From: Parcubacteria group bacterium Gr01-1014_30
GTDB lineage: Bacteria; Patescibacteriota; Minisyncoccia; Minisyncoccales; 2-12-FULL-40-12
Length of the DNA: 64,000 nt
NCBI GenBank assembly: GCA_007376185.1
Contig: VMFS01000001.1
Coordinates: forward strand, 94,206 to 158,205
Direction of reading: 5' to 3'
Below, one piece after another: positions 66 to 29,279 of this stretch. A program made the position numbers and the translations under genes. Numbering within the stretch: position 1 is the stretch's first letter; every line of letters begins with the position of its first letter. The notes beneath the pieces were generated by a model. That model was given only the letters and a program-made list of their open reading frames with translations, was not told where the DNA came from and did not search any database.

Positions 66-404
66 ATGGCAAAATATATCCCCAACTTTATTGAGGAAAA
101 TGAGAAACGGGTTTCCAGAGGCATTAAAATGCACGCGATAAACCCAGCCTCTAAAGAAGTAATAGAGTTTAGTAAAGCCCACCCATTGCCAAAGGGGGAT
201 GAAATAAGGGTAATCCCAAAAGAGAAGTTTAATTTTCCGGCTAATATTGCGACGCGGGGTAGTAAAGTATCAATTATTTCCATGAAAGGCGACTTCGGCC
301 TCGTTATTGAAAATAAAGAGATCACTGAGAGTTTTAGTAATATTTTTGATTTAGCGTGGGAAATGGCTAAGATGTATGACAAAAAATTAAGAGGTAGTAT
401 TTAA
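66..404 (+). CDS. hypothetical 112-aa protein with no Cys; first gene of the 66-8570 operon
   Basis: Intact ORF ending 10 bp before the MIO-enzyme gene. No recognisable motif. Confidence 0.4.
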   Translation: MAKYIPNFIEENEKRVSRGIKMHAINPASKEVIEFSKAHPLPKGDEIRVIPKEKFNFPANIATRGSKVSIISMKGDFGLVIENKEITESFSNIFDLAWEMAKMYDKKLRGSI

Positions 405-414
405 ACATACAAAA

Positions 415-2094
415 ATGCCAGGTAGCCAAAACGGAGATCAATCACAGGATGGGTTGTTGCGTGCAAAATCAATTGCACAGGATACGTTCAATCTTCAAGA
501 GCAGCAGCGTTTGATGAAGCCAAAAGTTACTCTAGACGGCGACCATCTCGGGGTTCGCGATGTTGACTTATTTGTGCATAACCCCAGCATTGTTATCGAG
601 CTATCAGAAGCAAAGCTTCAAGAAGTTGACAAAAGCAGAAAATTCCTTGAGCGAGAACTTAATAACAGGATTATTTATGGGGTGAACACTGGATTTGGAC
701 CCATGGCTTCGCATATTATTAACCAAGACCAGTTAGAACGGCTGCAAGAAAATCTTGTCCGGAGCCATGCTGTTGGTATGGGGGCGCCTATTGATACAAA
801 ATATGTGCTGGCAGCAATGATTATCCGTTTAAATACTCTTACGAAAAGGTATTCTGGGGTAAGCCGAGGGCTTATAGAGCATCTGCAAAAAGTTCTTAAT
901 CACAGGATAGTGCCAGTGATACCAGAACACGGTGCAGTAGGAACCAGCGGAGATTTGGTTCAACTTGCTCATATTGCTTTAAGCTTGACCGGGCAAGGTT
1001 ACGTGTTTTACCAAGAGGGAAAACAACCTACTTCCAAAGTATTCCAAAGACTTCAGGTACAACCATACAAACTTAAAGCAAAAGAAGGCCTTTCACTTAT
1101 TAACGGCACATCGGCAATGTGCGGAGCGGGCACATTAAACTGTCTTCATGCTCATAGGTTGCTATCTTTGGCAATTCGTTTCGGGGCTTTTGCCTTGGAA
1201 CTTGTTCACGCATACGGCGATAGTATTTCTGAAAAACTTCAAAAGGTAAGGCCGCACCGAGGACAGGTTGCAGTTGCAAAAGCTATACGAGAAACGCTTG
1301 CTTCTTCTAGTATGCTGCACAGCAGGAAAGCTGAAGAACAGGTTGATATTCCAGACGAGGTAAAAGAAATCTCTGAAGTTGTGCAAGAAATTTACTCGTT
1401 CCGCTGTATTCCGCAAATTTTGGGTCCGGTGTACGACGCTTTGTATAAGGCACAAAAAGACATTGAGGTTGAAATTAATTCAAGCTCTGACAACCCAATC
1501 GTTGACCTCGAAGGAGATAACTTCTTACACGGAGGAAATTTCCACGGTGATTACATTGCCTTTGCCATGGACCAACTTAAATTAGCCATTATTAAACTTA
1601 CTATGTTGTCAGAGCGTAGAATAAACTTCTTTTTACACCAAAAACTCAACAACTTTTTCCCGCCATTTTTAAATCTCGGGCAGCCCGGGCTTACGCTTGG
1701 CCTCCAAGGACTGCAATTTGTGGCTACCTCTACCACTTCTCAAAGTCAAACCTTGGCTTTTCCACAATACATACATTCCATCCCAACCAATGCAGATAAT
1801 CAAGACGTAGTAAGCACGGGCATGGAGTCTGCTTTACTTGCGTCAAAAATTATGGAAAACGCCTATATTGTATTGGCCATAGAACTAATTACCCTTGCAC
1901 AAGCTACCGACTTTCGTGGGGTTTACGACAAGCTTTCTAATTCTTCCAAAGATCTATTCAAAGGAGTACGTTCCGTGTTTCCCAAGATAGTTGAAGACCG
2001 CATAATGGTGGACGAACTCCCTAGGGTAGTTGAATTCTTAAAATCCAATCAAACCATTAACCCCTATATAGCTTCAACGAATCATGACTGCTAA
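415..2094 (+). CDS. MIO-dependent aromatic amino-acid ammonia-lyase/aminomutase (HAL/PAL/TAL family)
   Basis: Family motifs GVNTGFGPMA and LVRSHAVGMG are present. The cofactor triad position reads AVGTSGDLVQLAH, i.e. Thr-Ser-Gly where Ala-Ser-Gly is usual. Length 559 aa is typical. Confidence 0.75.
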   Translation: MPGSQNGDQSQDGLLRAKSIAQDTFNLQEQQRLMKPKVTLDGDHLGVRDVDLFVHNPSIVIELSEAKLQEVDKSRKFLERELNNRIIYGVNTGFGPMASHIINQDQLERLQENLVRSHAVGMGAPIDTKYVLAAMIIRLNTLTKRYSGVSRGLIEHLQKVLNHRIVPVIPEHGAVGTSGDLVQLAHIALSLTGQGYVFYQEGKQPTSKVFQRLQVQPYKLKAKEGLSLINGTSAMCGAGTLNCLHAHRLLSLAIRFGAFALELVHAYGDSISEKLQKVRPHRGQVAVAKAIRETLASSSMLHSRKAEEQVDIPDEVKEISEVVQEIYSFRCIPQILGPVYDALYKAQKDIEVEINSSSDNPIVDLEGDNFLHGGNFHGDYIAFAMDQLKLAIIKLTMLSERRINFFLHQKLNNFFPPFLNLGQPGLTLGLQGLQFVATSTTSQSQTLAFPQYIHSIPTNADNQDVVSTGMESALLASKIMENAYIVLAIELITLAQATDFRGVYDKLSNSSKDLFKGVRSVFPKIVEDRIMVDELPRVVEFLKSNQTINPYIASTNHDC

Positions 2095-3598
2095 GTCCAT
2101 TGTTGCTGACTTTGATTTTACCAAACAACGAGATTGGACAACCAGCTTTCTTCATTTCGGCATTACCCAATTCGAAAAACTTCTTACAGATAAACCAGAA
2201 TCGTTTTGGCAGAAAGAAGGAGAGAAACGCGCCTTGAAACTCTTCCATGCAGTCTCCCAAAGAGTTCCTGCTTACAAGACATTCCTTAAAAAGCACAAAA
2301 TAAACCCAAAGAATATACGGACCCTCAAAGATTTTGCCCAGGTCCCTCCTACTGACAAGAAAACCTATATTCGCAAATACCCTTTAATACAGCGTTGCTG
2401 GGATGGGAAACTAGAGACTACAAAATTAGTTGCTATAAGCTCTGGCACTAGCGGGGAGCCAACGTTTTGGCCGCGTAGTAGTTTTCAAGAGTTCGAAGCA
2501 GCGATCATTCACGAACTCTTATATCGCTATCTTTTTGATATTCACAAATACCGCACCCTTCTTATCGTTGGTTTTCCTATGGGCACTTATGTTTCTGGTA
2601 TTGCTACCCTTTTGCCCAGTTGGCTTGTTGCTCAAAAGGGTTATAATCTTACAGTTGCAAGCGTGGGAACGAATAAGCAAGATATTCTAAAAGTGGCCAT
2701 GCTTCTCCAGAAGAATTATGAACAGATTATCTTAGTAGGGCACCCTTTCTTTATGAAAGATGTAGTGGAAACCGGAAGAGAAATTGGGCTTCAGTGGGGA
2801 AAGAAGCGGCTTAAATTTATGTTTTGCTCGGAAGGATTTAGCGAAGAGTGGCGGAGTTATGTATTGAAACAAGTTAAAGCCTCCGTACAGCCTGCCGATA
2901 TGATAAGCACATATGGTTCTTCTGAGTTGTTGCTTATAGCGTGGGAAACCCCAGCAAGTATTGCTTTGAAAGCAGCTATTGAAACAAGTAAAGGAGTAAA
3001 AGGAGAGCTTTTGCACCGTTGGTCTCCTTCGAATCTATTCCAATACAACCCTTTGTTTCGATATATTGAATCTGTTAAAGATGAATTGCTGTTTACTTCG
3101 GCAAGCGGTATCCCGTTAATTCGCTACAATCTCCACGATATGGGCAGAGTTATTTCTCTTGACCAGGCAAAACGAGTGACGTCCAAACTTAAAGTACGCT
3201 GGCAGTTTCCATTTCTTGCGTTAGGAGGCCGGAGTGATTATGCAGTGGTATTTTACGCTGCCAACATTTACCCGGAGCACATTCGTCAAGCCCTTGACTA
3301 TAAACCTTTTTTAACAAAACTCACGGGGAAATTTGTGATGCGTAAAGACTATACCAAAAAGCTGGAGGAGTTTTTGGAAATTAACGTTGAGCTGAAAAAC
3401 CGTGCTAGCCTTGACAAACCCTTTGAACGAGCAATTCAAAAGCGGGTAATCGACCACTTGCAGTCAGTGAACATGGAATATCTTTTCTTGCGCAATAACC
3501 TCAAGCAAGATCTCCGTCCGCGTATAAAGCTTTGGCCATACCAACACGAGAGGTATTTCAAATTAAGCCTTAAGCCTCGTTATATACTGTCTAATTAA
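2084..3598 (+). CDS. adenylate-forming ligase, PaaK / coenzyme F390 synthetase / GH3-like
   Basis: ISSGTSGEPTFWPRS matches the phosphate-binding loop of the PaaK/GH3 clade. 504 aa. Start overlaps the stop of the upstream gene. Confidence 0.55.
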   Translation: MTAKSIVADFDFTKQRDWTTSFLHFGITQFEKLLTDKPESFWQKEGEKRALKLFHAVSQRVPAYKTFLKKHKINPKNIRTLKDFAQVPPTDKKTYIRKYPLIQRCWDGKLETTKLVAISSGTSGEPTFWPRSSFQEFEAAIIHELLYRYLFDIHKYRTLLIVGFPMGTYVSGIATLLPSWLVAQKGYNLTVASVGTNKQDILKVAMLLQKNYEQIILVGHPFFMKDVVETGREIGLQWGKKRLKFMFCSEGFSEEWRSYVLKQVKASVQPADMISTYGSSELLLIAWETPASIALKAAIETSKGVKGELLHRWSPSNLFQYNPLFRYIESVKDELLFTSASGIPLIRYNLHDMGRVISLDQAKRVTSKLKVRWQFPFLALGGRSDYAVVFYAANIYPEHIRQALDYKPFLTKLTGKFVMRKDYTKKLEEFLEINVELKNRASLDKPFERAIQKRVIDHLQSVNMEYLFLRNNLKQDLRPRIKLWPYQHERYFKLSLKPRYILSN

Positions 3599-3600
3599 TT

Positions 3601-4755
3601 ATGCAACAAGCAAGACCACAAATTTTCCGTACCCAAAAAGATCAAGCAAAAATACTAGCTCTTAAGAGGAGAAGTAGTACTAATATTGTTGACGCACTTG
3701 AGCAGCAACTAAGGGAATTGTTTTTGGCTCGGCACCCAAAATTGAAACTAAGCCCAGAAAAAGCAAAACAAGAAACTGCAAAGTTTTTGAAATCGAAAAA
3801 GAAAAAACCATTAGAAAAACAAGGTAGTTGGGTATACTTTAAATGGAATAGAACACTTGTTCATATCTTGGATGAAGATGATTTCTTTGAACTGCGTACG
3901 GCAAGAAACAAAAATCTTATTACAAAAGGCGAGCAAGAAAAACTTCGCACTTTTCGCATTGGCATAGCCGGTTTGAGCGTAGGCAACAGCGCCGCCCTAG
4001 TTCTTGCGCTGGAAGGCGCAGAAACTATGCGGTTGGCAGATTTTGACGAACTTTCGCTTTCAAATCTCAATCGCATTCGAGGAAGTATTACCCAACTTGG
4101 TTTAAATAAAACAATAATGACCGCAAGGCAGGTGTATGAACTGAATCCTTATGCAAAACTAGAACTCTTTGAAAAAGGATTACATCAGGCAAGAGATCTG
4201 AAAAAGTTTGTCGCAGACCCGCCTAAGCTAGATGTATTAGTGGACGAAATAGATGATGTTATAATGAAAGTGCAGCTTCGACTAAAAGCAAGAAAACTAC
4301 GCATTCCTGTATTATCGGTTGCGGATAACGGCACCAACTCTATTGCTGACGTTGAGCGTTTTGACTTAGAGCCAAAACGTAAACTTTATCACGGACTTCT
4401 ACAGGACAGTAAAGCAAGCAAACTGCAGAGAGATATCTTGTCGAAAGAAAAAATGAGAATGATTGCAGATATAGTAGGAGTAGAGTATGTTACTTCACGA
4501 ATGAAGACATCATTCCTTGAGGTGGGCAACACGCTATACTCTTGGCCCCAGCTCGGAGGAGCCTCTATGTTAAGCGGTGCTACTCTTGCATATCTTGTGA
4601 AAAAAATCGCGTTTGGGGAAAACCTCGAAAGCGGGAAATACGATGTGAACTTCGACCGAATTTTCGAAAACCAGTACGACTCCTTAACGGCAAAACAACG
4701 TAGAAATAGAGAGAATAAAGAATTTCTCCACAAACAAAAGGAACTATTTTCTTAA
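3601..4755 (+). CDS. ThiF/MoeB/E1-like adenylyltransferase with a ~110-aa N-terminal extension
   Basis: RIGIAGLSVGNSAALVLALEG...LADFDELSLSNLNRI is the canonical ThiF Rossmann/SNLNRQ motif. The N-terminal extension could be a peptide-clamp/RRE-like domain (inference). Confidence 0.7.
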   Translation: MQQARPQIFRTQKDQAKILALKRRSSTNIVDALEQQLRELFLARHPKLKLSPEKAKQETAKFLKSKKKKPLEKQGSWVYFKWNRTLVHILDEDDFFELRTARNKNLITKGEQEKLRTFRIGIAGLSVGNSAALVLALEGAETMRLADFDELSLSNLNRIRGSITQLGLNKTIMTARQVYELNPYAKLELFEKGLHQARDLKKFVADPPKLDVLVDEIDDVIMKVQLRLKARKLRIPVLSVADNGTNSIADVERFDLEPKRKLYHGLLQDSKASKLQRDILSKEKMRMIADIVGVEYVTSRMKTSFLEVGNTLYSWPQLGGASMLSGATLAYLVKKIAFGENLESGKYDVNFDRIFENQYDSLTAKQRRNRENKEFLHKQKELFS

Positions 4756-4756
4756 T

Positions 4757-5812
4757 ATGGAAGACAAGATAAGACAAATACTCGAGCTTGCGATACGTGC
4801 TCCTTCTGGAGAAAACTGCCAGCCATGGAAGTTCCAGATTCAGGGAAATCAACTCACCATTTGGAATATGCCAGAACGCGATAGTTCTCTTTACAGTTGG
4901 GGGCAGCGACCATCGTATGTTGCACACGGTGCGTTTTTAGAAAGCGTTGCTATTGCAGCTCCCGCGTTTGGACTTTCTCCCCGTATAGAGCTTTTCCCTG
5001 ATTCTACAAAAACAGAGTGCGTGGCGCGAATCGTATTTGAAGAATCGCAGCAAAAAATTCATCCCTTGTATCAATTTATTACGGAGCGAGTGACAAACAG
5101 AAAGGTTTATAAAAAAATTGTCCTTACCAAAGAGCAAAAGGAAGAACTTTCTAGTATACACATAGGACTAGAGCGTGGCAAAATTATATTTGTAGAACAA
5201 GAACAAGACATAAAAACCATAGCTCAAGCTATAGCGGGAAACGAACGTATTATCTTTGAAAACCCGTACATGCATAAATTTTTCTATGACCATATCACGT
5301 GGACAGAACAAGAGGATCTCGGAAAAAAAATTGGGTTTTATGTTAAAACATTCGAATTGCCTATGCCAGCAGAAAAAATATTCAAACTTGCGAAGAGTAA
5401 AACTTTTGTCAAATTCGCTAACAAGATTGGCTTTTCGAAAATGATTGCAAAACAAAATGCAAAAGTCTATAGTTCGGCTTCTGCAGTAGGAGCAATTATA
5501 ATGTATAGTAACTCGTCAGTAGATTTTATTGTCGCAGGACGACTCATACAGCGAATCTGGCTTACTGTAACGAAGTTAGGTTTGAGCCTTCAACCTCTTA
5601 CAGGCATCCTATTCCTTTATCAACGCGTTTCTCAACAGCAAACAGACAAACTAAGTCCGGGACAAATAGACTTTATACAAGAACAGTACAAGCGAATTAA
5701 GGAAACTTTTGGGGTTGATAATGAAACTATTGCAATGCTTTTTCGGATCGGAGATGGGGGGAGCCCTACTGCGCGCTCTCTACGACTTCCACTTACGGTT
5801 CAAGAATTTTGA
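4757..5812 (+). CDS. nitroreductase-fold oxidoreductase (SagB/McbC-like or Acg-like, 351 aa)
   Basis: N-terminal LELAIRAPSGENCQPWKF is the nitroreductase-superfamily signature. The size suggests an extended or two-lobed member. Confidence 0.6.
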   Translation: MEDKIRQILELAIRAPSGENCQPWKFQIQGNQLTIWNMPERDSSLYSWGQRPSYVAHGAFLESVAIAAPAFGLSPRIELFPDSTKTECVARIVFEESQQKIHPLYQFITERVTNRKVYKKIVLTKEQKEELSSIHIGLERGKIIFVEQEQDIKTIAQAIAGNERIIFENPYMHKFFYDHITWTEQEDLGKKIGFYVKTFELPMPAEKIFKLAKSKTFVKFANKIGFSKMIAKQNAKVYSSASAVGAIIMYSNSSVDFIVAGRLIQRIWLTVTKLGLSLQPLTGILFLYQRVSQQQTDKLSPGQIDFIQEQYKRIKETFGVDNETIAMLFRIGDGGSPTARSLRLPLTVQEF

Positions 5813-5818
5813 GTACAT

Positions 5819-6538
5819 ATGTTTTTCTCCAACCGAATCCCCGAACCTAAAATAATGGAGAAAGAAGAAATGAAAGTGTTCGAAGAGTTGAGTAATCAGA
5901 ACTACAAAAGGTGGATACTTCCTTTTGTAGATGAAGCAATGCAAACACTGAATGTTGAATCAGGGAAAGTTCTTGACATAGGATGCGGGCCAGGATTACT
6001 TGTTAAGGAACTCGCTAAGCGATCAAAAAACCTCCGAGTCATTGGAGTTGACGTCTCACCCGAAGCCATCAAGCTTGCCAAGAAGAATTGTCGTTCTCTA
6101 AAAAACGTAAAATTTCTTCGCGGCGATGTTACAAGTTTGCCGTTTCCCAATGGCACCTTCGACCTTATTGTTTGCAAAGATAGCTTCCATGAATTCCCAA
6201 ATTTAAGAAAAGCTCTTCAAGAAGTGATGCGTGTTTTGAAACCCGGCGGGATTCTTTACGCGCAAGATTTACGAAGGGATCTCCCGATGTACTTGCTTCG
6301 TCGCGCAATACCCCCTGACACAACTGTAAAAAAACTTCAGTTCTACTCGGCAAGGGCTGCATACATAAAAACCGAGATTCGAGATATATTAAAACAATTA
6401 GATATTCAACACTTCTTTATTAAAACAAGAAAACTTACTGAAAACATTAGAAAAAATTATGGAAAGCAAGGCATCTCTTTAATTCAGCTAAAAGAAGGTT
6501 TTCAGGCTAGGTATATACTTGTAGTAAAAAATAAATGA
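5819..6538 (+). CDS. class I SAM-dependent methyltransferase
   Basis: Motif I VLDIGCGPGLL. A post-I acidic stretch and LKPGGIL are also present. Confidence 0.75.
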   Translation: MFFSNRIPEPKIMEKEEMKVFEELSNQNYKRWILPFVDEAMQTLNVESGKVLDIGCGPGLLVKELAKRSKNLRVIGVDVSPEAIKLAKKNCRSLKNVKFLRGDVTSLPFPNGTFDLIVCKDSFHEFPNLRKALQEVMRVLKPGGILYAQDLRRDLPMYLLRRAIPPDTTVKKLQFYSARAAYIKTEIRDILKQLDIQHFFIKTRKLTENIRKNYGKQGISLIQLKEGFQARYILVVKNK

Positions 6539-8193
6539 ACTTGCCTTTACAAATTTTTGCCCTGGAAAACTTAGATCTTTTAATCCTTGGTATAGCAAAC
6601 ACCGCTATAACCCTTTTAGGTGTGGTGGTATTTCTCCGCAATACACGCAGTATTACTTACAAAACTTTTTTACTCTTCGCATTGGTAGCCTCTGTCTATG
6701 CGACCGTGAATTACATGAGCTACCAATCTAGTTCTTCTATTCTAGTACTTTGGGCACTCCGTTTCGTTCTTTTCTCTGCTACCTGGTACTCTTTTCTACT
6801 GTTGCAGCTTTTTTATGTCTTCCCAAAAGAACGTATTACATTTCCAAAATTGTACAGATTCTTCCTACTTCCAACGGTCACACTTACCTCTTTATTAACC
6901 CTAACTCCATTTGTATTCTCGCGGATATCAGAACTAGCGCCGGTAGGTCAAGTTACTAATCCTGAAAGAGGCATGGGCATTGTGCTATTTGCAATCATAA
7001 GCATCTTTCTAGTAGCCTACGGACTTTTTACTCTATTTAAAAAGACTTTTAGGGCAAAAGGTGAAGAAAGAGATCAGCTTCTTTTTGTACTGATTGGTTC
7101 TCTTATTACCTATGTCTTCATTATTGTATTCAACCTTATACTACCCGTGTTTTTTAACAATACCGTACTCATTCCCTTAGCCCCGGTCTTTACCCTTCCT
7201 TTTATTTCCTTCACTGCATATGCAATCCTTCGATACAAGCTTCTGAATATCAAGGTAATAGCTACGGAAGTTCTTACGTTTATGTTGGCGGCGGTTACAC
7301 TTTTTGAGGTGCTGTTTGCGCGAGAGCTCGGAGTGCTTATTTTCAGAATTGCTATTTTTGTCGCGGTGCTTGGATTTGGTATTTTGCTTATTCGGAGTGT
7401 AAGAAAGGAGGTGGAGCAGAGAGAGAAACTGGAGAGGTTAAGCGAGCAGCTGAAAACAGCCAACGTCAGGTTAGACGCGGCTTTAAAGAAAGTTGAGAAA
7501 CTATCAAAAGCAAAGTCCGAGTTTATTTCCATTGCTTCCCATCAACTAAGAACCCCTTTGACCGCCATAAAGGGATATATCTCAATGATTTTGGAAGGGA
7601 CTTACGGGCGTTTGTCAAAGAAAGCAAGAAGACCTATGGGAAACGTTTATGAGTCAAACGAGCGATTGATTCGTTTGATCAACGACCTGCTAGAGGTTTC
7701 CAGGATTGAAGCTGGCAAAATAGAGCTTGAGCTAGAAGAAGCCCGCGTTGAAGAAATTATTGAGGGCGTAGTTGCGGAATTGGGAATCACGGCTCAGCAG
7801 AAAAAGCTTTATCTGAAATGGGAAAAGCCGGAAACGCCTGCCCCGAAATTATTGCTGGATAAGCAAAAGATAAGGCAGGTTATCTTGAATTTGGTGAACA
7901 ATGCCGTAAAATATACTAAGGAAGGAGGCATCACCATTAAATTGAAAATTGAAAACTTAAAATTGAAAATTGCGATAGCTGATACTGGCGAGGGTATGAC
8001 TAAAGAGGATTTGGGGAAGGTATTTCAAAGCTTTTCCAGAGGGACAACAGGCGTCCGACTTTCAGCCGAAGGAGCAGGCCTTGGTCTGTATATAGCCAAA
8101 AAGTTTGTTGAAATGCACAGGGGCAGAATATGGGCAGAATCAGAAGGAAAAGGTAAGGGGTCAACTTTTTACGTTGAGTTGCCCATAAAGTAG
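6535..8193 (+). CDS. sensor histidine kinase with multi-TM N-terminal domain
   Basis: About seven hydrophobic helices, a coiled coil, then the HisKA motif SHQLRTPLTAIKGY. The HATPase_c region contains GEGMT and GAGLGLYI. Start overlaps the methyltransferase stop. Confidence 0.8.
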   Translation: MNLPLQIFALENLDLLILGIANTAITLLGVVVFLRNTRSITYKTFLLFALVASVYATVNYMSYQSSSSILVLWALRFVLFSATWYSFLLLQLFYVFPKERITFPKLYRFFLLPTVTLTSLLTLTPFVFSRISELAPVGQVTNPERGMGIVLFAIISIFLVAYGLFTLFKKTFRAKGEERDQLLFVLIGSLITYVFIIVFNLILPVFFNNTVLIPLAPVFTLPFISFTAYAILRYKLLNIKVIATEVLTFMLAAVTLFEVLFARELGVLIFRIAIFVAVLGFGILLIRSVRKEVEQREKLERLSEQLKTANVRLDAALKKVEKLSKAKSEFISIASHQLRTPLTAIKGYISMILEGTYGRLSKKARRPMGNVYESNERLIRLINDLLEVSRIEAGKIELELEEARVEEIIEGVVAELGITAQQKKLYLKWEKPETPAPKLLLDKQKIRQVILNLVNNAVKYTKEGGITIKLKIENLKLKIAIADTGEGMTKEDLGKVFQSFSRGTTGVRLSAEGAGLGLYIAKKFVEMHRGRIWAESEGKGKGSTFYVELPIK

Positions 8194-8207
8194 TTGTAGA
8201 ATTAAGT

Positions 8208-8570
8208 ATGGCTAAGATTTTGATAGTAGAAGACGAAAAGCTTTTGGGGGAAATGTACAAAGATAAGCTTGAGGCCTTGGGCCATGAAGTTGTTTTGGTG
8301 CTTTCGTCTGAAGACGCACTTGATTACGTGAACAAAGAGACCCCCGATTTTATTTTATTGGACATAATTTTGCCCAAAGCGAGCGGCATAGATTTTTTAA
8401 GAGCTGCAATGAGAATCAAAAGTATTGCTAAAGTCCCGGTGGTTGTTTTTTCAAACTACGACGACCCCGCAACAAAAAAAGAGGCCTTGAAGCTTGGCGT
8501 CAAGGCCTATTTAATAAAATCGCAGTACACGCCTCAAGGAATGTTGGAAGAGGTTGAAAAGTTTCTTTAA
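8208..8570 (+). CDS. stand-alone response-regulator receiver domain (CheY-like)
   Basis: KILIVEDEK...LLDIILP...K fits the receiver fold. 120 aa with no output domain. Confidence 0.8.
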   Translation: MAKILIVEDEKLLGEMYKDKLEALGHEVVLVLSSEDALDYVNKETPDFILLDIILPKASGIDFLRAAMRIKSIAKVPVVVFSNYDDPATKKEALKLGVKAYLIKSQYTPQGMLEEVEKFL

Positions 8571-8573
8571 GGG

Positions 8574-10481
8574 TCAGCGGCTTAAAGCTTTCTCCATAAA
8601 GGTGCGCCATATAGGCCCGGCCAGCACTATGCCGGGCTCTTGGCGCATTGGCGTGTTGTCGTTGTTACCAACCCAAACGCCGGCAACAATAGAGGGCGTG
8701 TAGCCCAAAATCCAGCCGTCTTTGAAATCCTGGGTCGTGCCTGTTTTGGCGGATACCTTATAGTTTTCAAAGTACATCACTGACCTTGGGCCGAAAATCG
8801 GCGTCCTTGCTTCGTTGTCAGACAGTATGTCTGAAATAAGCTCCGTTGGCTCTCTTTCTATAACCCTTTTGGGAGTTCTCTGGTTTTGTTCAATAACGTT
8901 GCCTTGCGAGTCCTCAATTCTCAAGACGGCCAAAGGAGCCACCTGAAGGCCTGCGGTGGCAAAAACACCATAGGCTGAAACCATGTCTAACAGACGCACC
9001 TCGCCTCCTCCAAGAACAATCGACAAGCCGTAAAAAGAAGGTGGCTGAGTCAGGGTGGTTATGCCGAAGTTTTGAGCCATATTAATAGAGTCCTGTAAGC
9101 CAGCGAGATCTGCCAGAACCTTTACTGAAGGCACGTTTAAGGATTGAGCCAAACCTTGCCTTAGAGTTACAGGCCCCCTGAAGCGACCGTCGTAGTTTTT
9201 GGGGATATATGGTTTTCCGCCCCAAAGGCCGAAGTTAGTTTCTTCATCAACCACCTCGTAATCTGCGTCGTAGCCTTTTTGAAAAGCCGTAACGTAGACA
9301 AAGGGCTTGAAAGCCGAGCCCGGCTGGCGAGACCTTAAAACCACGTTTGGGTAGGGTTCAAACAAGCAGTTTTTGCCGGGGACGCATCCTTTGGGCCAAG
9401 GGTCGCCAAACCAATCCTTTGAGCCGACCATTGCCAAGACCTCTCCGCTGTTTGGGTCAGTTGCCACGATAGCCGCGTTGTAGGCGCCCAAAGACGTGTT
9501 TCTTTGGGCTGCATTAGCAACAGCTTTCTCTGCGGCTTCTTGCAATTCCCAGTCCAAGGAAGTATAAACTTTCAAACCTTTCTCTCTCAAGAAGGCCTCC
9601 CCGTATTTTTCTTCCAGCCAGTCTTTTACCCACAGAGTAAAGTGCGGAGCTTTTATGGGTTGAGACGCTTTAGCAAACTGCAGTTCTTCAGCTTTTGCTT
9701 GCTGTGCTTGGTTTTGCGTCAAGAATCCGACCCTTGCCATTCTGGCCAAAACCACGTTTTTCTTGGACACTAGCTCTTGAAGGTTTTGGCCGTAAGGCGA
9801 AAGAAAACTCGGCGCCTGTATCAAAGCGGCCAGCGTTGCGGCTTCAGACAGTGTGATTTCCCTGACCGATTTTTGAAAATAAGTTTGGCTGGCTGCCTCC
9901 ATGCCGTAGGCGTTCTGCCCCAGCGGAATCTGGTTGAGATACCATTCCAAAATTTGGTCCTTTGAATAACGCCTCTCCATCTCCAGGGTTAAAATAACCT
10001 CTCTAATTTTTCTTTCAGGCGTCTTTTCCAATGTTAGAAACGTTGAGCGAATAAGCTGCTGGGAAATTGTGGAGCCCCCGTATACAGGGCTGCCCAGGCG
10101 AATGTTAATGGGTATTGATCTTAGGATGCCTCTAAAATCAAGGCCAAAGTGCTTGTAAAAGTTAATATCCTCTGCGGCAATGACGGCTTCAATTAAGTGT
10201 TTGGGCATCTCAGACAGAGAAGCCCAGGTTCTTTTTTCTTCACCATATATTTCGTACAAAAGCACTTCGCCTGAGCGGTCGTAGATTTTCGTGGACTGGG
10301 CAAGGGTTCTTTCTGTAAATTTTTCTGGCCTGGGCAAGCTTCTGCCGTAGTAAACGAACAAAGCCAAAACCAAGACGGTAAAGAGTAGGAGTCCGGTTCT
10401 TGAAATTTTCAAAACAAAAACCGCCTTTTTATTCATTCTTTTTTGCGAGTAAGTTTTCCGGTAATATTTTCTTTCGGGCAT
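8574..10481 (-). CDS. mrcA: class A penicillin-binding protein (bifunctional transglycosylase/transpeptidase, PBP1A)
   Basis: N-terminal TM helix. EDINFYKHFG is the GT51 motif. SAFKP (SxxK) and KTGTT are transpeptidase motifs. Confidence 0.85.
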   Translation of the reverse strand: MPERKYYRKTYSQKRMNKKAVFVLKISRTGLLLFTVLVLALFVYYGRSLPRPEKFTERTLAQSTKIYDRSGEVLLYEIYGEEKRTWASLSEMPKHLIEAVIAAEDINFYKHFGLDFRGILRSIPINIRLGSPVYGGSTISQQLIRSTFLTLEKTPERKIREVILTLEMERRYSKDQILEWYLNQIPLGQNAYGMEAASQTYFQKSVREITLSEAATLAALIQAPSFLSPYGQNLQELVSKKNVVLARMARVGFLTQNQAQQAKAEELQFAKASQPIKAPHFTLWVKDWLEEKYGEAFLREKGLKVYTSLDWELQEAAEKAVANAAQRNTSLGAYNAAIVATDPNSGEVLAMVGSKDWFGDPWPKGCVPGKNCLFEPYPNVVLRSRQPGSAFKPFVYVTAFQKGYDADYEVVDEETNFGLWGGKPYIPKNYDGRFRGPVTLRQGLAQSLNVPSVKVLADLAGLQDSINMAQNFGITTLTQPPSFYGLSIVLGGGEVRLLDMVSAYGVFATAGLQVAPLAVLRIEDSQGNVIEQNQRTPKRVIEREPTELISDILSDNEARTPIFGPRSVMYFENYKVSAKTGTTQDFKDGWILGYTPSIVAGVWVGNNDNTPMRQEPGIVLAGPIWRTFMEKALSR

Positions 10482-10769
10482 AGAGGGGATAGGAGCATTC
10501 TACTAAATTTGAGGCGGTTTCGCAATAGTTTAACAAAAAACCCCGACTTTATCGGGGCCTTTTATGAGCTACTCCACGCTTTCTTTCCCCGTCTCCTCTT
10601 CACTTTCTTCTTCTTCGTCAGTGTTTTCTTCGTCTTCGCCGGTGACAGAAGTCAAAATTTCGTCTTCGAAAATCATATTTAACTTTTTTGGTTCAGATTA
10701 ACTTGGCCGACCTTTGGCTTCACAGGGATAGTATAATTGCCCCAAAATACTTGTCAAGTGGGAGATCTA

Positions 10770-11063
10770 TTACAGCCTTTCCTTTTTAAATCTCTTTTCT
10801 TTTTTTACCCAGTGCCAGATTTCCAAAGGCAGCTTTACCTTATTTTTTTTGAAAAAATCCAGAATCTTCTTGCGGCACCTCGCAACGTTCTTTGGCGTAG
10901 TCAACTGAATATGTCTAAGTTTTCTTCCTTTTAGAGCCAGCAGGTCAATGATGCCGAAAACGTCGTTTTGTTTGAAGCGCACTTTTGAGGGATACCAGGT
11001 TATCCACCCCCTTTGTGCAAGCTCGGCAACCGCCTTTTTTCTCGTTTCCGTTTCCTTAGCCAT
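10770..11063 (-). CDS. small basic protein, possible Hjc/VRR-NUC-like PD-(D/E)XK resolvase-fold protein
   Basis: AVAELAQRGW...DVFGIIDLLALKGRKLRHIQL resembles the Hjc core (E...D...ExK), but Q/T stand where E/K are expected. The gene overlaps the yebC stop, in the position ruvC usually occupies. Confidence 0.35.
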   Translation of the reverse strand: MAKETETRKKAVAELAQRGWITWYPSKVRFKQNDVFGIIDLLALKGRKLRHIQLTTPKNVARCRKKILDFFKKNKVKLPLEIWHWVKKEKRFKKERL

Positions 11064-11613
11064 TTTTTACGTTATCATATATCTCTTGTACGCTGTCTAG
11101 TTCGTCAAGCTCGTCAAAGAGCTTTTGTAACGAACCTTTTGTTTTTTCGTCAACCTCAATTTCCTGCAATGGCTGCCATTCTAAGGACCCGGGCTCTTTT
11201 ACTTTCCTTTCAAACATCCATTTCACGCCTCCTTCTCCCACCAGTTTGCCCCCATGCTGGGCCAAAATCCGCTTTACCTCGCCTAAAGCGCGGTTTTTGT
11301 TATCGGTAATGCCCTCAATTATGATGGCTACCCCGCCCGGACCGTATGCTTCAAACAAAACCTCTTCCAGTTTTTCGCCTTCCACTGGACCTGAGCCCCG
11401 CAAAATAGCCCTTTCAATGTTTTCTTTGGGCATATTGCAGGTTCTCGCGGTTTCAATGACAGCTTTTAGCTTGGGATTTGCTTCGGGATTTGGCCCCCCT
11501 TCTTTAACCGCAACCTGAATCAAACGGGCCATCTTTGAAAAGATTTGCCCTCTTTTTTTGTCGCTCGCTTCCTTAATCCTTTTTACTGTTTTGGCATGGC
11601 TATGGCCGCTCAT
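11056..11613 (-). CDS. yebC: YebC/PmpR-family probable transcriptional regulator (short form)
   Basis: MSGHSHAKTVKRIKEASDKKRGQIFSKMARLI is the conserved N-terminus of the family. Confidence 0.8.
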   Translation of the reverse strand: MSGHSHAKTVKRIKEASDKKRGQIFSKMARLIQVAVKEGGPNPEANPKLKAVIETARTCNMPKENIERAILRGSGPVEGEKLEEVLFEAYGPGGVAIIIEGITDNKNRALGEVKRILAQHGGKLVGEGGVKWMFERKVKEPGSLEWQPLQEIEVDEKTKGSLQKLFDELDELDSVQEIYDNVKNG

Positions 11614-12524
11614 ACGTCTTTATTGTGATTATGAGTATTTTTTAATTTGTTTTTGAATAGCAAAATTGCGGTACCCGAAACCCCTGCCAGCAAAAAGGCG
11701 ATGAGAAAAACCGGAAGCCTCTCTTTGGTTTCTTGGTTAGAGTATGGCAACTCGAAGGGTTGCGCAGCTTGGGCCAAGCCGGTTTCCGGTAAATCTTTCT
11801 CATTTTCTATTTTAGGAGGTTTCAGGGCAGGGTCAACCCAGGCCAAACCTTGGCTTTTAATGTCTTGCAGAGTTTTTTCGCCAATCCCCTGCACTTTGGC
11901 CAAGTCGTCCAAGGAGTAAAAAGGTCTAACGTCTATTATTCTTTGGGCTAAAACTTGACCCACGCCGGCCAACTTTTGAAGCTCCTCGGCAGATGCGGCG
12001 TTGATATCTACTCTAAGGGGCGCTGGCTCCTTAGATGGCTGGACGGGTTTCGTTGCCGTAGAGGAGGAGTTGGGTTGAGGCGGCGCGGGAGGGGGCGTGT
12101 TTTGTGTGGACTCCAAGGTTGTTTCTTGATTTGCAGTTGTGAAGGTTTCCTGTTCTGTTGCGGTTTGTGTTTGTGGTTTTGGTGGTGGAGGCGGCGGCGG
12201 AGGAGGTTCGGAAGGAGGTTGCATATTAGGATCTGCCCAAGCTAAGCCTTGTGCTTTAATATCTGCCAGCCGCTTTTCCCCTATACCATTTACCTTGATA
12301 AGCTCGTCTATCGAGTAAAACGGCCTCGCTTCTATTATCCTGTGAGCTATGACAGGACCAACCCATTTTATTTTCTGCAACTCTTCAGACGAAGCGGTGT
12401 TAATGTCTACTTTTTCCTCCTCCGCCGCCCCGATCCAAGCCAAGAGAAGCAAGAAAAGGCAAACAATGACTACTTTTGACCCCCACACCAAAGCGTTGGC
12501 GTGGGGGCTTGACAAAGTTCTCAT
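11610..12524 (-). CDS. comEA: competence protein ComEA with duplicated helix-hairpin-helix DNA-binding domain
   Basis: Two copies of VDINxASxEELQKxxGVGxVxAxRII. A poly-Pro linker separates them and there is a TM helix. Confidence 0.8.
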   Translation of the reverse strand: MRTLSSPHANALVWGSKVVIVCLFLLLLAWIGAAEEEKVDINTASSEELQKIKWVGPVIAHRIIEARPFYSIDELIKVNGIGEKRLADIKAQGLAWADPNMQPPSEPPPPPPPPPKPQTQTATEQETFTTANQETTLESTQNTPPPAPPQPNSSSTATKPVQPSKEPAPLRVDINAASAEELQKLAGVGQVLAQRIIDVRPFYSLDDLAKVQGIGEKTLQDIKSQGLAWVDPALKPPKIENEKDLPETGLAQAAQPFELPYSNQETKERLPVFLIAFLLAGVSGTAILLFKNKLKNTHNHNKDV

Positions 12525-12757
12525 AATATATTAGAATAGGAATGTTATACAGCCCCAAAGCTGAGGGCCGGGAGTTTTTCTTAGAATGGACGGTTTGGCT
12601 GAGGCGAAACCCATCCTCAAGAAAGTTCTAAACTTTGTGTTCCTAAAACCAAGTGGCCCTCAGCTTTGGGGCTTCCCCGTATATCATCTTTCGGTCGCCT
12701 GCGGCGATAATTGCGTTTTTCAAGAACGCACCGAAAGTTGTATTACGGGGCTGATTT

Positions 12758-14605: not shown

Positions 14606-15481
14606 ATGCAAAAAAAGCGACTCTTGGTTATTATTGACGCAAACTCTGTTATTCACAGAGCGTTTCACGCTTTGCCGCCTTTCACCACCAAGAAAGGAGA
14701 GCCGGTAGGCGCGATTTACGGATTCTTGCTTGTCTTTTTCAAAGCCATTAAAGATTTTGAACCCGACTTTGTGGCGGCTTGTTTTGACGTACCGGGCCCA
14801 ACTTTCAGGCACGCCAAGTTCAAAGAATACAAAGCCAAAAGGCCGCCGGCTCCCGAAGACCTATATAACCAAATCCCAAAAGTTAAGGAAGTTTTGCGCT
14901 CGTTTAACGTTCCAGTGTTTGAAAAGGCAGGTTTTGAAGCAGATGATATCATTGGCACGATAGCCGATAAAGCCCCCAAAAAGCAAGCTTTTCCCGAATT
15001 GGAAACGATAATTCTAAGCGGCGACAAAGACGTGTTGCAGCTGGTTGACAAAAACACAAAAGTTTACGCTTTGAGCAAAGGGGTAAAAGACGTTGTTTTG
15101 TACGACGAAGAGTTAGTTAAAGAAAAATACGGACTGAGGCCAAAGCAGCTTCTTGACTATAAAGCCCTGAGGGGCGATCCATCTGATAACATACCAGGAG
15201 TAACGGGCGTTGGAGAAAAGACGGCAACAGATCTTTTGGCGCGCTTTAACACCTTAGACAAGATTTACGAAAATATATCTCAAGTGCCAGACAAGCTGAA
15301 AGAAAAATTGCTCGCTTATAAAGACCAGGCCCAGCTTTCCCGAGAGCTCGCCAGAATAAATAAAGCAGTCCCCATTGACTTTAACTTACAAGATTGCCAA
15401 TGGGGAGGGTATGACAGAGCAAAAGCAGGTCAAGCCGTAAAAGAGCTTGAGTTTAAAAGTTTAGCGGAAAAACTGCCTTAA
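14606..15481 (+). CDS. stand-alone 5'-3' exonuclease (Pol I N-terminal / FEN-like domain)
   Basis: IDANSVIHRAFHAL, GDKDVLQLV and GDPSDNIPGVTGVGEKTA (H3TH) motifs. Confidence 0.8.
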   Translation: MQKKRLLVIIDANSVIHRAFHALPPFTTKKGEPVGAIYGFLLVFFKAIKDFEPDFVAACFDVPGPTFRHAKFKEYKAKRPPAPEDLYNQIPKVKEVLRSFNVPVFEKAGFEADDIIGTIADKAPKKQAFPELETIILSGDKDVLQLVDKNTKVYALSKGVKDVVLYDEELVKEKYGLRPKQLLDYKALRGDPSDNIPGVTGVGEKTATDLLARFNTLDKIYENISQVPDKLKEKLLAYKDQAQLSRELARINKAVPIDFNLQDCQWGGYDRAKAGQAVKELEFKSLAEKLP

Positions 15482-15485
15482 AAAC

Positions 15486-16211
15486 GTGCCGGAACTTCCA
15501 GAAGTTGAAACAATCAAGCGTCAGCTTGCGCGAAAGATTATTGGCAAGCAGCTGAAAGGACAAAAGATTATAAGCGTCCGGCGCAGAGGCAAGCTTTTAA
15601 TAATTGACTTTCAGAATGGCTCAAGTTTGGTTTTTCACTTGAAAATGACCGGCCAACTGATTTTGAACGGCGCCCGCGCTTCACACACGCGCCGCATTTT
15701 TCGCCTTAGTGACGGCTCTCAACTGGTCTTTAATGACGTCAGAAAGTTCGGCTGGTGGAAAAGGTTAAAAAAGGCGGAAAAGGAGTTGGGCGCTTTGGGT
15801 CCAGAACCCCTTGAACTTAACCTAAAATCTTTTAAGGATATCTTAGGGCGGCACCCCAGATCCCGCATTAAATCTTTGCTGATGGACCAAAAAGCTATAG
15901 CAGGTATAGGCAACATTTACTCGGACGAGATTTTATACAAAGCTCGAGTTCGTCCTTTGCGCTGGATTGAAAGTTTGAAGAGAGACGAGTTTTTGCGAAT
16001 TTTTGAAAGTATGAAAAAAATTCTTAAAGCCGCAATCAGACACCATGGCTCTTCCGCGAGGAATTATCGCGACCTTTTCGGCAAAGAAGGCGGCTACCTG
16101 AAATACCACAAGGTTTATCAAAAGAAAGAGTGCGCCAGGTGCGGGTCAAAGTTAAAGAGAGTTAAACTGAACGGAAGAAGCGCGCATTATTGCGAAAATT
16201 GCCAAATATGA
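15486..16211 (+). CDS. mutM: formamidopyrimidine-DNA glycosylase (Fpg/MutM family)
   Basis: N-terminal MPELPEVET catalytic Pro. C-terminal zinc finger CARCG...CENCQ. Confidence 0.85.
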   Translation: MPELPEVETIKRQLARKIIGKQLKGQKIISVRRRGKLLIIDFQNGSSLVFHLKMTGQLILNGARASHTRRIFRLSDGSQLVFNDVRKFGWWKRLKKAEKELGALGPEPLELNLKSFKDILGRHPRSRIKSLLMDQKAIAGIGNIYSDEILYKARVRPLRWIESLKRDEFLRIFESMKKILKAAIRHHGSSARNYRDLFGKEGGYLKYHKVYQKKECARCGSKLKRVKLNGRSAHYCENCQI

Positions 16212-17107
16212 TAATTCTGTTACACGGGCCCGATACCTACAGGTCTCGCCAAAAGCTACAAGAGATAGTTGAGCGTTACAGAAAAGTTCACAAAAGCGGA
16301 CTTAGTTTGACCTACTATGATGCGCTTTCGGATTCTTTTGAAAAGTTTTTTGACGAGTTCAGACAATTCACAATGTTCAAGGAAAAAAAACTTGTTGTTT
16401 TGCAAAATGTTTTCCAGTCAGAGAGTTTCAAAGAGAAGTTTTTGCGGTCTCAAAAGAGCTTCTTTAAAACCGACAACATTATTGTGATTTTTGAACAAGG
16501 TAAAGTTTTAAAGGGAGACCGCCTTTTCAAGCAACTTTCAAAAGAAGCGAAAACACAAGAGTTCTCTATTTTGCAAGGAACTCCTTTAAGAAATTGGGTC
16601 AAAAAAGAGTTTGAGAAATACAGCGCAAGGCCTGAACCGCAAGCTGTTGAGAAATTAATAGAGTTTGTTGGCTTTGACTCTTGGAGGATTGCTTCAGAAG
16701 TAAAAAAACTGGCCGCATTCAATAAAAGCGTTGACGAAAGAACCGTTGAGCTTTTGGTGTCTCAAAAAATTGATACAGACATTTTTAAAACCATTGACGC
16801 CATAGGCGCTAAAAACAAAAAACAGGCAATAGCCCTTTTGAAAAAACACTTGCTGTCTGGCGACCCGCCCCTTTATCTTCTTTCAATGATTAACTATCAG
16901 TTCAGGAACTTGCTTTTGGTAAAGTCGGGTTCTAAGCACCCAAATATGCACCCTTTTGTGGCCAGAAAGTCAGCAGAGCAAGCCAGGCGCTTTTCTTTTG
17001 AAGAACTGAAAAGAATTTACCGCAAACTTCTTGAAACCGACCTAAACATAAAAACCGGCAAACTTGATGCAGAAACCGCTCTGGATTTGTTGGTCGCTGA
17101 GCTGTAA
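16208..17107 (+). CDS. holA: DNA polymerase III delta subunit (HolA-like)
   Basis: Call rests on size, the MIILLHGPDTY start and a helical C-terminal domain. The ATG at 16208 overlaps the mutM stop (ATGA). Confidence 0.55.
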   Translation: MIILLHGPDTYRSRQKLQEIVERYRKVHKSGLSLTYYDALSDSFEKFFDEFRQFTMFKEKKLVVLQNVFQSESFKEKFLRSQKSFFKTDNIIVIFEQGKVLKGDRLFKQLSKEAKTQEFSILQGTPLRNWVKKEFEKYSARPEPQAVEKLIEFVGFDSWRIASEVKKLAAFNKSVDERTVELLVSQKIDTDIFKTIDAIGAKNKKQAIALLKKHLLSGDPPLYLLSMINYQFRNLLLVKSGSKHPNMHPFVARKSAEQARRFSFEELKRIYRKLLETDLNIKTGKLDAETALDLLVAEL

Positions 17108-17110
17108 TTT

Positions 17111-17365
17111 TTATTTCAGCGATTTCGCCAGGCGAGATTTTTTCCTGGAGGCGGTGTTTTTTTTGATAACGCCGACTTTGGCGGCTTTGTCCAGAATTTT
17201 GTAGAGTTCTGGCAAAAGCTTTTTGGCTTCGTCAGTTTTTTTGGCCAAAATTAAGGTTCGCGTTTTCTTTAAGAGCGTTTTTATTTTGTTTTTGTAAACA
17301 AGGTTTTTGGATTTTCTTCTTTGGCTTTGCCTTAAAGCTTTTTTAGCGGATTTGGTGATTGCCAT
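17111..17365 (-). CDS. rpsT: 30S ribosomal protein S20
   Basis: MAITKSAKKALRQSQRRKSKN is a typical S20 N-terminus. Confidence 0.85.
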   Translation of the reverse strand: MAITKSAKKALRQSQRRKSKNLVYKNKIKTLLKKTRTLILAKKTDEAKKLLPELYKILDKAAKVGVIKKNTASRKKSRLAKSLK

Positions 17366-17395
17366 ATTTTCAAAACAAGGTAAAATGACTATAAC

Positions 17396-17794
17396 ATGGC
17401 TGAAGAGAAATATCCAGTCCCGGAAATGAAGCCGGGCGAGGAAATCAAGATTCTAAAAGAGCGTTTGGAAAAACTCGAGACCCAGCTTTCAAAAGAAACG
17501 GTTCCGGTCGAAAAGGAAGAAGCGGTGAAGCAAGAAATCAAGAGCTACCTCCAAGAGCTTCAGCAAACGCCGAGTTTCGCTCCGCCAGCTAAAACCAAAG
17601 ATGAAGTTAGCGAAATTTCCAAGTTTGAGCCGAGTCAACAGGTCGGCGCTCTGGTCAGCTTAGTTTTTCAGAAGGGGCTGACGCAGGCAATTTCAGTTGC
17701 CAGAGACTTGGACAACCCCGCCATTTTGGATGAGTTTCATGACACACTGGCCGATCATTATTATCAGCGGTTGGTTGAAGAGAAAATTGTTTAA
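17396..17794 (+). CDS. hypothetical acidic protein
   Basis: Intact ORF packed tightly against the next gene. Confidence 0.35.
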   Translation: MAEEKYPVPEMKPGEEIKILKERLEKLETQLSKETVPVEKEEAVKQEIKSYLQELQQTPSFAPPAKTKDEVSEISKFEPSQQVGALVSLVFQKGLTQAISVARDLDNPAILDEFHDTLADHYYQRLVEEKIV

Positions 17795-29035: not shown

Positions 29036-29045
29036 CAAACCTTTA

Positions 29046-29118: not shown

Positions 29119-29279
29119 AACCTGTTTTATGATACCGCCAAGGCCGCTTTACTTCAAGCCCCGTATATCATCTTCGACAGGATTTTCTTTTAGAAAATCC
29201 TGTAATCGCGAAGCGAGTCGAAGTTGTATTACGGGGCAAGGTTGACTTAGTTTATTTTAATAGGTAAGATATAGCCATT

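Follow-up and report, generated by a model that had tools for sequence, protein, structure and literature searches.

In a 64,000-nucleotide stretch of the genome of Parcubacteria group bacterium Gr01-1014_30 (contig VMFS01000001.1, positions 94,206 to 158,205; hereafter the window), we identified a compact gene cassette in which a 4-methylideneimidazole-5-one (MIO)-dependent ammonia-lyase, a PaaK-fold adenylate-forming ligase, a ThiF-like enzyme and a flavin-dependent oxidase are encoded together with a membrane sensor histidine kinase. Judged by family-level sequence similarity, the ThiF-like enzyme and the oxidase together are homologous to oxazolone synthetase (OxzB; TyzB/TyzC; TrzS, which is Rv1355c), here split over two genes. 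The cassette is most likely a new architectural variant of the recently described oxazolone pathway, found mainly in Patescibacteria. We consider it probable, though well short of certain, that it encodes a variant oxazolone (azlactone) pathway hard-wired to a two-component sensor.

Open reading frame (ORF) calling returned eight ORFs on the + strand between window positions 66 and 8570, with spacings of +10, -11, +2, +1, +6, -4 and +14 nucleotides (nt). The first-pass annotation of this DNA had counted nine genes here. Its description of a single tightly packed same-strand unit was confirmed, as spacings of -11 to +14 nt are near the -10 to +15 that it gave, and searches with Pfam and NCBIfam profiles showed that its enzyme-family and domain calls were right. 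The genes of the unit, with the profiles or structures that support each call, are:

1 to 404, + strand: TrmB-family transcriptional regulator, 3' part of a gene of 259 amino acids (aa) (PF01978)
415 to 2094, + strand: MIO-dependent aromatic amino-acid ammonia-lyase, similar to tyrosine ammonia-lyase (TAL) (PF00221, NCBIfam FlxA)
2084 to 3598, + strand: PaaK-fold (ANL superfamily) adenylate-forming ligase, 504 aa (TIGR02155, AlphaFold2 (AF2) fold)
3601 to 4755, + strand: homologue of ThiF/E1-like ATP-dependent cyclases (PF00899, NF005901)
4757 to 5812, + strand: Acg-like flavin-dependent oxidase of the nitroreductase superfamily, 351 aa (NF011424, NF005901)
5819 to 6538, + strand: class I S-adenosylmethionine-dependent methyltransferase (Methyltransf_31/11/25)
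6535 to 8193, + strand: HisKA_7TM membrane sensor histidine kinase (PF16927, PF00512, PF02518)
8208 to 8570, + strand: receiver-only response regulator, CheY-like (PF00072)

The ThiF-like enzyme matched the NCBIfam family NF005901 ('Rv1355c family') with E = 4.5e-105 and 352.5 bits, residues 4-374 aligning to model positions 11-358, and MoeB/ThiF models gave it at most 64 bits. The oxidase gene follows after a gap of 1 nt, and its product matched the remainder of the same model (positions 374-715; E = 1.5e-59, 202 bits). It also scored 210 bits with NF011424 and 143 bits with the Acg family, and it showed only the N-terminal nitroreductase motif in Pfam (PF00881) and a match to the Acg structure 2ymv in PDB (E = 2e-5). 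Because NF005901 splits across both proteins, the ThiF-like enzyme corresponds to the N-terminal half of a known fusion protein (TrzS/OxzB) and to TyzB, and the oxidase to its C-terminal half and to TyzC. We found such ThiF-oxidase fusions, 726-747 aa long, at the same cassette position in three other loci (L022, L039 and L040). The fusion of L039 scored 500.1 bits with NF005901, above the cut-off of 476, and that of L022 scored 474.2. An earlier statement that no canonical pathway uses this combination of enzymes was thus not upheld: on these two matches, ThiF plus nitroreductase is a known oxazolone-synthetase module. The interpretation of the genes as a conserved specialised-metabolite or signalling unit stood, and the view of them as an orphan combination did not.

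Rv1355c was described in December 2025 as TrzS, which in vitro cyclises N-acyl-tryptophan in an ATP-dependent step and then desaturates it in an O2-dependent one (PMC12856293). The same chemistry on N-acyl-tyrosine is carried out by TyzB (ThiF) and TyzC (oxidase), a split pair of M. tuberculosis (PMC10404671), and by OxzB, a fused enzyme from Pseudoalteromonas rubra (bioRxiv 10.1101/2020.06.11.147165; review PMC12596934). In the window, D218 of the ThiF-like enzyme aligns with D127 of E. coli ThiF. Through this shared residue we infer that D218 is the equivalent of TrzS D217, which is needed for cyclisation (PMC12856293). D147, D149, N155, R158, K170 and D218 are invariant in 27 ThiF homologues. 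The N-terminal flavin motif RAPSxxNxQPW and several Arg/Asn positions are kept in 35 cassette oxidases; in TrzS of M. smegmatis, R540 and Q651 are needed for flavin mononucleotide binding and desaturation (PMC12856293). By analogy with these enzymes, we propose that the oxidase acts as a C-alpha/C-beta desaturase.

To evaluate the conservation of the cassette, two sets of loci were compared. The first was seeded with the ligase in GTDB species genomes and gave 45 loci, 32 of them with enough flanking DNA to be evaluable. The second, independent of the ligase seeding, was seeded with ThiF in metagenome contigs and gave 31 evaluable loci. The ligase-seeded loci are nearly all from Patescibacteria (Doudna-, Kaiser-, Lloyd- and Paceibacteria among others), with one from Bryobacteraceae. 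In this set the MIO lyase is present in 31/32 loci and ThiF and the oxidase in 30/32 each, and MIO lyase, ThiF, oxidase and kinase all accompany the seed ligase in 25/32. The ThiF-seeded loci carry the ligase in 31/31, the oxidase in 27/31, the kinase in 27/31 and the MIO lyase in 11/31; ligase, oxidase and kinase occur together in 26 of the 31. Start/stop overlaps between cassette genes are frequent. The same gene order thus recurs in dozens of species-level genomes, among them other genomes of the candidate phyla radiation (CPR), where the first-pass annotation had proposed to look for it. That annotation had named chance juxtaposition without conserved synteny as grounds for rejecting its reading. 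Since synteny is conserved, this test does not refute it, and the reading as a specialised-metabolite or signalling unit linked to a kinase stands.

The loci differ from the described oxazolone clusters. All of those carry an N-acyl amino acid synthase that uses acyl-coenzyme A (acyl-CoA), namely OxzA, TyzA, TrzA or NasY (PMC10404671, PMC12856293, PMC12479983). In the 8-10 kb flanks of 44 GTDB and 80 metagenome loci, no acyltransferase family was conserved. Because the N-acyl amino acid synthase is absent and a PaaK-fold ligase is present instead, the cassette has the same enzyme module as the canonical oxazolone clusters but not their architecture.

The position upstream of the ligase is filled by interchangeable deaminating enzymes. 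In the metagenome loci it holds either the MIO lyase (17 loci) or an ELFV dehydrogenase (17 loci; PF00208 and PF02812), which is a Glu/Leu/Phe/Val-type amino-acid dehydrogenase; other occupants are class I/II or class IV aminotransferases. All of these enzymes convert an amino acid to a carboxylic acid. For the most part the ligases vary with this partner: those directly downstream of a MIO gene are 46-71% identical to the window ligase, and those found with a dehydrogenase or aminotransferase are 29-38% identical. ThiF (38-52% identity), the oxidase and the kinase do not split by acid-supplying partner. This pattern is expected if the first enzyme makes the acid for the ligase and the ligase product enters a common ThiF/oxidase step. 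One Patescibacteria genome (L030) has two tandem cassettes, MIO-ligase-ThiF at 8354-12624 and ligase-ThiF at 15239-17476, the second with a ligase of 35% identity. An MvdD-like ATP-grasp ligase (PF21068 and RimK) lies beside dehydrogenase-type cassettes in two further loci (L062 9986-10975, and L087).

The ligase had no Pfam match. In NCBIfam it matched TIGR02155 (PaaK) with E = 1.5e-14 and 53.4 bits, against a cut-off of 646, and FlxY with E = 4.8e-6, a match below the cut-off of 520 that spans only about 80 N-terminal residues. Its AF2 model (mean predicted local distance difference test score, pLDDT, 87) matched PaaK1 (2y27) in Foldseek with E = 3e-21 and template modelling scores of 0.65/0.75, and adenylate-forming ClxA (9s45) appeared lower in the list. 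Identity to PaaK structures was 16-18%. The ANL motifs S119-S120-G121, Y277-G278, E281, D352, R383 and K497 are invariant in 16 ligase homologues, including the P-loop SSGTSGEP, YGSSE and the C-terminal Lys. By its predicted model the ligase therefore has the PaaK fold with an ANL core, without equivalog-level similarity to PaaK. We propose that it couples the deaminated acid to an amino acid in place of the acyltransferase. Amide formation is suggested by the missing acyltransferase and by precedent such as ClxA-type enzymes.

Ligases of about 50% identity also occur outside CPR, without ThiF, oxidase or kinase, on a TARA scaffold (L002) and in Bryobacteraceae (L013). These two loci share as neighbours a phosphoenolpyruvate mutase and an aminotransferase (phosphonate-type), a GT4 glycosyltransferase, PanB and PanC. 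In L013 a FlxA-like MIO gene lies directly upstream of the ligase. L002 has in addition a thiamine pyrophosphate decarboxylase, a peptidase S58, ATP-binding cassette exporters, a radical S-adenosylmethionine enzyme and a distant MIO gene (26% identity) about 6 kb off.

The MIO enzyme matched PF00221 with 507 bits. Its top NCBIfam match was the FlxA TAL (NF053541; 622.6 bits, below the cut-off of 700), and models of histidine ammonia-lyase (HAL) gave about 445 bits against cut-offs of 524-539 (HAL, 448; HutH TIGR01225, 443 against 539). Seven further MIO homologues, six from cassettes and one from the Bryobacteraceae locus with only MIO and ligase, scored 537-619 bits on the FlxA model with the same ranking. 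By these scores the cassette MIO enzymes are nearest to FlxA but form a separate subfamily. Y88, H118, T177-S178-G179, N230, Y327 and R330 are kept in 41-42 of 42 cassette homologues, and the motif NQDVVS, which lacks a Glu, in 42 of 42. T177-S178-G179 is the Thr variant of the MIO-forming tripeptide Ala-Ser-Gly, and the region of Y88 and H118 aligns with the IYG...LVRSH segment of SgTAM. From RsTAL H89, SgTAM Y63/H93 and PpHAL, we take Y88 to be the catalytic Tyr and H118 the substrate-switch His; the Glu of an NQED motif is presumably typical of HAL, from which the NQDVVS of the cassette enzymes differs. Because FlxA is the top match, HAL scores lower and these residues are kept, tyrosine is the likely substrate and p-coumarate the likely product.

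Taken together, these data lead us to propose the following pathway. The MIO lyase would deaminate L-tyrosine, and p-coumarate would result; where sister cassettes have a Leu/Phe/Val-type dehydrogenase or an aminotransferase, a 2-oxo acid would be formed. The ligase would then adenylate the acid and attach it to an amino acid at the amino group. By forming an N-acyl amino acid in this way, it would take over the role of the N-acyltransferases OxzA, TyzA and TrzA. Next, the ThiF-like enzyme would adenylate the carboxylate, and attack by the amide oxygen would close the 5(4H)-oxazolone ring. The Acg-like flavin oxidase would desaturate the C-alpha/C-beta bond to a conjugated 4-ylidene-oxazolone. 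The chemistry of these two steps is drawn from the literature on characterised homologues. Where present, the methyltransferase may tailor the product. Finally, the seven-transmembrane (7TM) kinase and the receiver would detect the product, which would be hydrophobic and prone to hydrolysis, or would tie its synthesis to a cue from outside. With an acceptor that is aromatic too, a highly conjugated 2-styryl-4-arylidene-oxazolone would be expected.

The main alternative to this pathway is an aryl-CoA route, in which the MIO enzyme and the ligase make p-coumaroyl-CoA, this is consumed by an unlinked acyltransferase or a different acceptor, and ThiF and the oxidase act on what results. Precedents are the flexirubin enzymes FlxA/FlxY, the chromophore of photoactive yellow protein (PYP) and the p-coumaroyl-homoserine lactone pathways. 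The FlxA match of the MIO enzyme, the weak PaaK and FlxY matches of the ligase, its fold closest to the CoA ligase PaaK1, and the MIO and ligase pair without ThiF, oxidase and kinase on the non-CPR contigs L013 and L002 all agree with it. However, the conserved neighbours of about 120 loci include no acyltransferase, ketosynthase, LuxI-type or PYP-type gene, and the route leaves this universal absence of an acyltransferase unexplained. The ligase is invariably beside ThiF, and its FlxY match is confined to the N-terminal residues noted above. Patescibacteria also commonly lack CoA biosynthesis. We therefore regard the aryl-CoA route as rather unlikely, though it is the strongest competitor.

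Several observations weigh against the oxazolone pathway itself. Members of the PaaK family are mostly CoA ligases. The MIO enzyme, judged by sequence scores, falls below every NCBIfam equivalog cut-off (FlxA, 622 against 700), and since the closest solved MIO structure is an aminomutase (SgcC4 tyrosine aminomutase, 313 bits, the closest PDB match), it may form beta-tyrosine. The link to OxzB, TyzB/TyzC and TrzS runs through an NCBIfam model that is centred on Rv1355c. O2 is required by the characterised oxidases, and many Patescibacteria live in low-oxygen groundwater. Four loci with the order MIO-ThiF-ligase carry a type-2-like ligase, an exception to the pairing of ligase subtype with partner. 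Adjacency of the kinase does not show that it binds the product, the response regulator has no output domain, and there is no conserved exporter.

The kinase matched HisKA_7TM (PF16927, 46.9 bits), HisKA (PF00512) and HATPase_c (PF02518), all above cut-offs. It is present in 28/32 and 27/31 evaluable loci of the two sets, and its gene overlaps the methyltransferase gene by 4 nt, with similar overlaps in other cassettes. Among the non-enzymatic partners the kinase is thus the most constant, and it is often translationally coupled. Across cassettes its 7TM part shows 25-56% identity, irrespective of the enzyme that supplies the acid, and has the invariant residues N59, R76, G188 and K240; by hydropathy, K240 lies in the loop after the 7TM domain and not in a helix. 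The receiver (PF00072, 70 bits, above the cut-off) has no output domain, and a receiver gene lies beside the cassette in 10/32 GTDB loci, either upstream and divergent or downstream. The methyltransferase (Methyltransf_31/11/25, about 103 bits) is present in only 3/32 and 3/31 evaluable loci, between oxidase and kinase (for example L018, L044 and L091), and we propose that it is an optional tailoring step.

A family of about 248 aa with several transmembrane segments and no Pfam match is encoded in or beside five metagenome cassettes (L076, L091, L094, L113 and L123). It is sometimes duplicated, and in L113 it stands at the kinase position. As a candidate for a stand-alone 7TM part of the kinase, this protein (c8) was rejected, with no match in hmmsearch and a probability of 0.7% in hhalign. 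In another locus (L054 7069-10020), an RtcB gene split by an intein is directly downstream of the cassette kinase.

Literature searches found no ligand for HisKA_7TM. What oxazolones do physiologically has been named as a major unresolved question, and trzAS is a neighbour of cyclic di-GMP (c-di-GMP) genes (PMC12856293). A signalling function has been suspected from the lability of oxazolones and their likeness to acyl-homoserine lactones (PMC12856293; bioRxiv 10.1101/2020.06.11.147165). Because no ligand is known for HisKA_7TM and oxazolones have been suspected of signalling, the kinase linkage is the most interesting feature of the cassette. This linkage suggests a producer-sensor circuit. 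A more tentative idea, which we rate as possible but less likely than not, is a self-contained producer-receptor pair in which the 7TM kinase is the cognate receptor for an amino-acid-derived oxazolone. If true, oxazolone natural products, which were found only in 2020-2025, would gain their first receptor and their first defined physiological role. Ultra-small CPR bacteria would then have a native circuit of a quorum-sensing-like or host-sensing kind, in which the plugged-in amino-acid-deaminating enzyme sets the variable part of the signal. The cassette thus offers a testable lead on oxazolones as signals and a candidate ligand class for the HisKA_7TM sensor domain.

The product could instead be bound by the 7TM kinase or attached to it covalently, as a ligand or chromophore and not a diffusible signal. 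In such a case it might be a light- or redox-sensitive 4-ylidene-oxazolone, or the electrophilic azlactone might acylate a nucleophile. The invariant polar residues N59, R76 and K240 may however be generic to PF16927, and the loop position of K240 is a further point against this idea. Many source samples are dark groundwater, which speaks against photoreception. We judge the cofactor explanation improbable in either form.

The first-pass annotation had also drawn analogies to thiazole/oxazole-modified microcins (TOMM, azoline peptides) and to MccB. Such modification of a ribosomally made peptide (RiPP) would have the E1-like protein activate a peptide C-terminus, as in MccB or PaaA, or act as an azoline partner, with a SagB-type nitroreductase. 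We found no YcaO, no SagB/TOMM match in NCBIfam and no ORF of at least 60 aa conserved near the cassettes beyond the named families (shorter ORFs were not screened), and the gaps within the cassette are only -11 to +14 nt. The AF2 model of the ThiF-like enzyme (pLDDT 91) aligned to MccB/PaaA in fold searches only over the E1 core of about 200-250 residues. Its N-terminal 100 aa, raised earlier as a possible RiPP recognition element (RRE) or peptide clamp, were not matched by the MccB/PaaA clamps, and the searches gave no support for an RRE; the N-terminal ~100 residues are instead covered by the Rv1355c-family model. Characterised members of that family, such as Rv1355c and OxzB, act on small molecules (PMC12856293). 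The peptide analogies thus lost their support, and we consider a RiPP-like role very unlikely.

A chance grouping of HutH histidine catabolism, molybdenum cofactor or thiamine sulfur-carrier activation (MoeB/ThiF) and an unrelated two-component system can practically be dismissed: public annotations do read 'histidine ammonia-lyase', 'molybdopterin/thiamine biosynthesis adenylyltransferase' and 'phenylacetate-CoA ligase', but gene order is kept across dozens of species, HAL, MoeB and ThiF equivalog scores are far under their cut-offs, the NQDVVS motif lacks the HAL Glu, and the cassette holds no hutU/hutI, ThiS/MoaD or rhodanese partners. A defence system was rejected as well, since PADLOC gave generic matches only (E1 core at 30 bits or less, methyltransferase domain, HATPase/receiver domains).

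We compared the cassette with the known systems. In the tryptazolone pathway of TrzA/TrzS (Rv1356c/Rv1355c; M. tuberculosis, M. smegmatis, Rhodococcus; PMC12856293), the ThiF-like cyclase and flavin oxidase are of the same NF005901 family as those of the cassette, and the adenylation Asp is kept. Signalling genes are nearby in both, for c-di-GMP turnover at trzAS and a kinase in the cassette. In contrast to TrzA/TrzS, the cassette has its domains on separate genes, has a MIO lyase and a PaaK-fold ligase instead of a TrzA-type N-acyltransferase, includes a 7TM kinase and a receiver in the unit, and is hosted by Patescibacteria and not Actinomycetota. Its acyl group is probably amino-acid-derived (an aryl-acrylate or 2-oxo acid) and not taken from a fatty acyl-CoA. 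The tyrazolone enzymes TyzA/TyzB/TyzC (Rv2336-2338c; PMC10404671) have a split ThiF and oxidase pair in one operon, as in the cassette. The Tyz and Oxz chemical logic, in which an N-acyl aromatic amino acid is cyclised with ATP and desaturated to a 4-arylidene-oxazolone, would be shared; in TyzA/B/C and OxzA/OxzB, however, an N-acyl amino acid synthase makes the N-acyl amino acid with acyl-CoA as donor. No kinase is mentioned in the OxzB paper (bioRxiv 10.1101/2020.06.11.147165), and no histidine kinase in the TrzS paper (PMC12856293).

A methyltransferase together with ThiF and a nitroreductase is also found in the clusters for the N-acyl-dehydrotyrosines stieleriacine and the thalassotalic and kyonggic acids, for example in Stieleria; the products of these clusters affect microbial interactions and biofilms (PMC12479983). 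Unlike the cassette, these clusters use a NasY acyltransferase and long fatty acyl chains and have no MIO lyase, ligase or kinase. In the flexirubin starter-unit pair FlxA/FlxY, the gene directly downstream of the lyase encodes a PaaK-like ligase, as in the cassette, but the cassette proteins score below the cut-offs (700 and 520) and no polyketide or aryl-polyene machinery accompanies them. PaaK itself differs from the cassette ligase, which at 504 aa has N- and C-terminal extensions.

The architecture is thus new in its proposed amino-acid-derived acyl donor, its putative use of an ATP-dependent ligase without an acyl-CoA transferase and its almost always attached 7TM kinase, and the cassette would be among the few conserved specialised-metabolite cassettes in Patescibacteria. 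It occupies about 1% of the sequence of genomes from which most biosynthesis has been lost, which suggests importance for the episymbiotic lifestyle. Literature searches on the cassette in Patescibacteria/CPR, and on AclA, returned no relevant paper.

The unit begins with a regulator cut by the window edge. The frame of the first ORF is open back to window base 3. On the parent contig (L001, where the window coordinate equals the L001 coordinate minus 6400), the full gene spans 6025-6804, starts 376 nt before the window and encodes a TrmB protein of 259 aa with the winged helix-turn-helix domain PF01978 (E = 2e-18). The 112-aa first ORF, earlier suggested to be a substrate or carrier protein, is therefore the C-terminal tail of this regulator, which rules it out as a carrier or precursor. 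An idea based on a PYP-type chromophore was dropped too, as a PYP-like protein is missing and the first ORF lacks Cys. TrmB occurs in 3/32 evaluable GTDB loci and is an optional member of the cassette.

Since the next gene upstream of TrmB on L001 is on the opposite strand, we place the start of the unit at TrmB. This divergent gene (L001 2076-5882, - strand), just before the window, encodes a 1268-aa protein with Pfam matches to GreA_GreB, NosD/beta-helix and an LCAT/PGAP1 lipase-type family. Downstream of the receiver is a convergent gene for a transglycosylase/transpeptidase of the penicillin-binding protein 1 type (8574-10481). A scan for promoters and terminators gave counts no different from those in shuffled sequence. 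A single TTGCCC-17-TATAAT site was seen, 25 nt upstream of where TrmB starts.

Elsewhere in the window, four tRNA genes lie at 28964-29646: Arg-CCG (+), Arg-GCG (-), Ser-GCT (+) and Ser-TGA (+). GC content dips to 0.353 at 32001-34000 and to 0.358 at 58001-60000, against 0.40-0.48 in other parts, and the first dip falls in an ORF of 989 aa (30690-33659, + strand).

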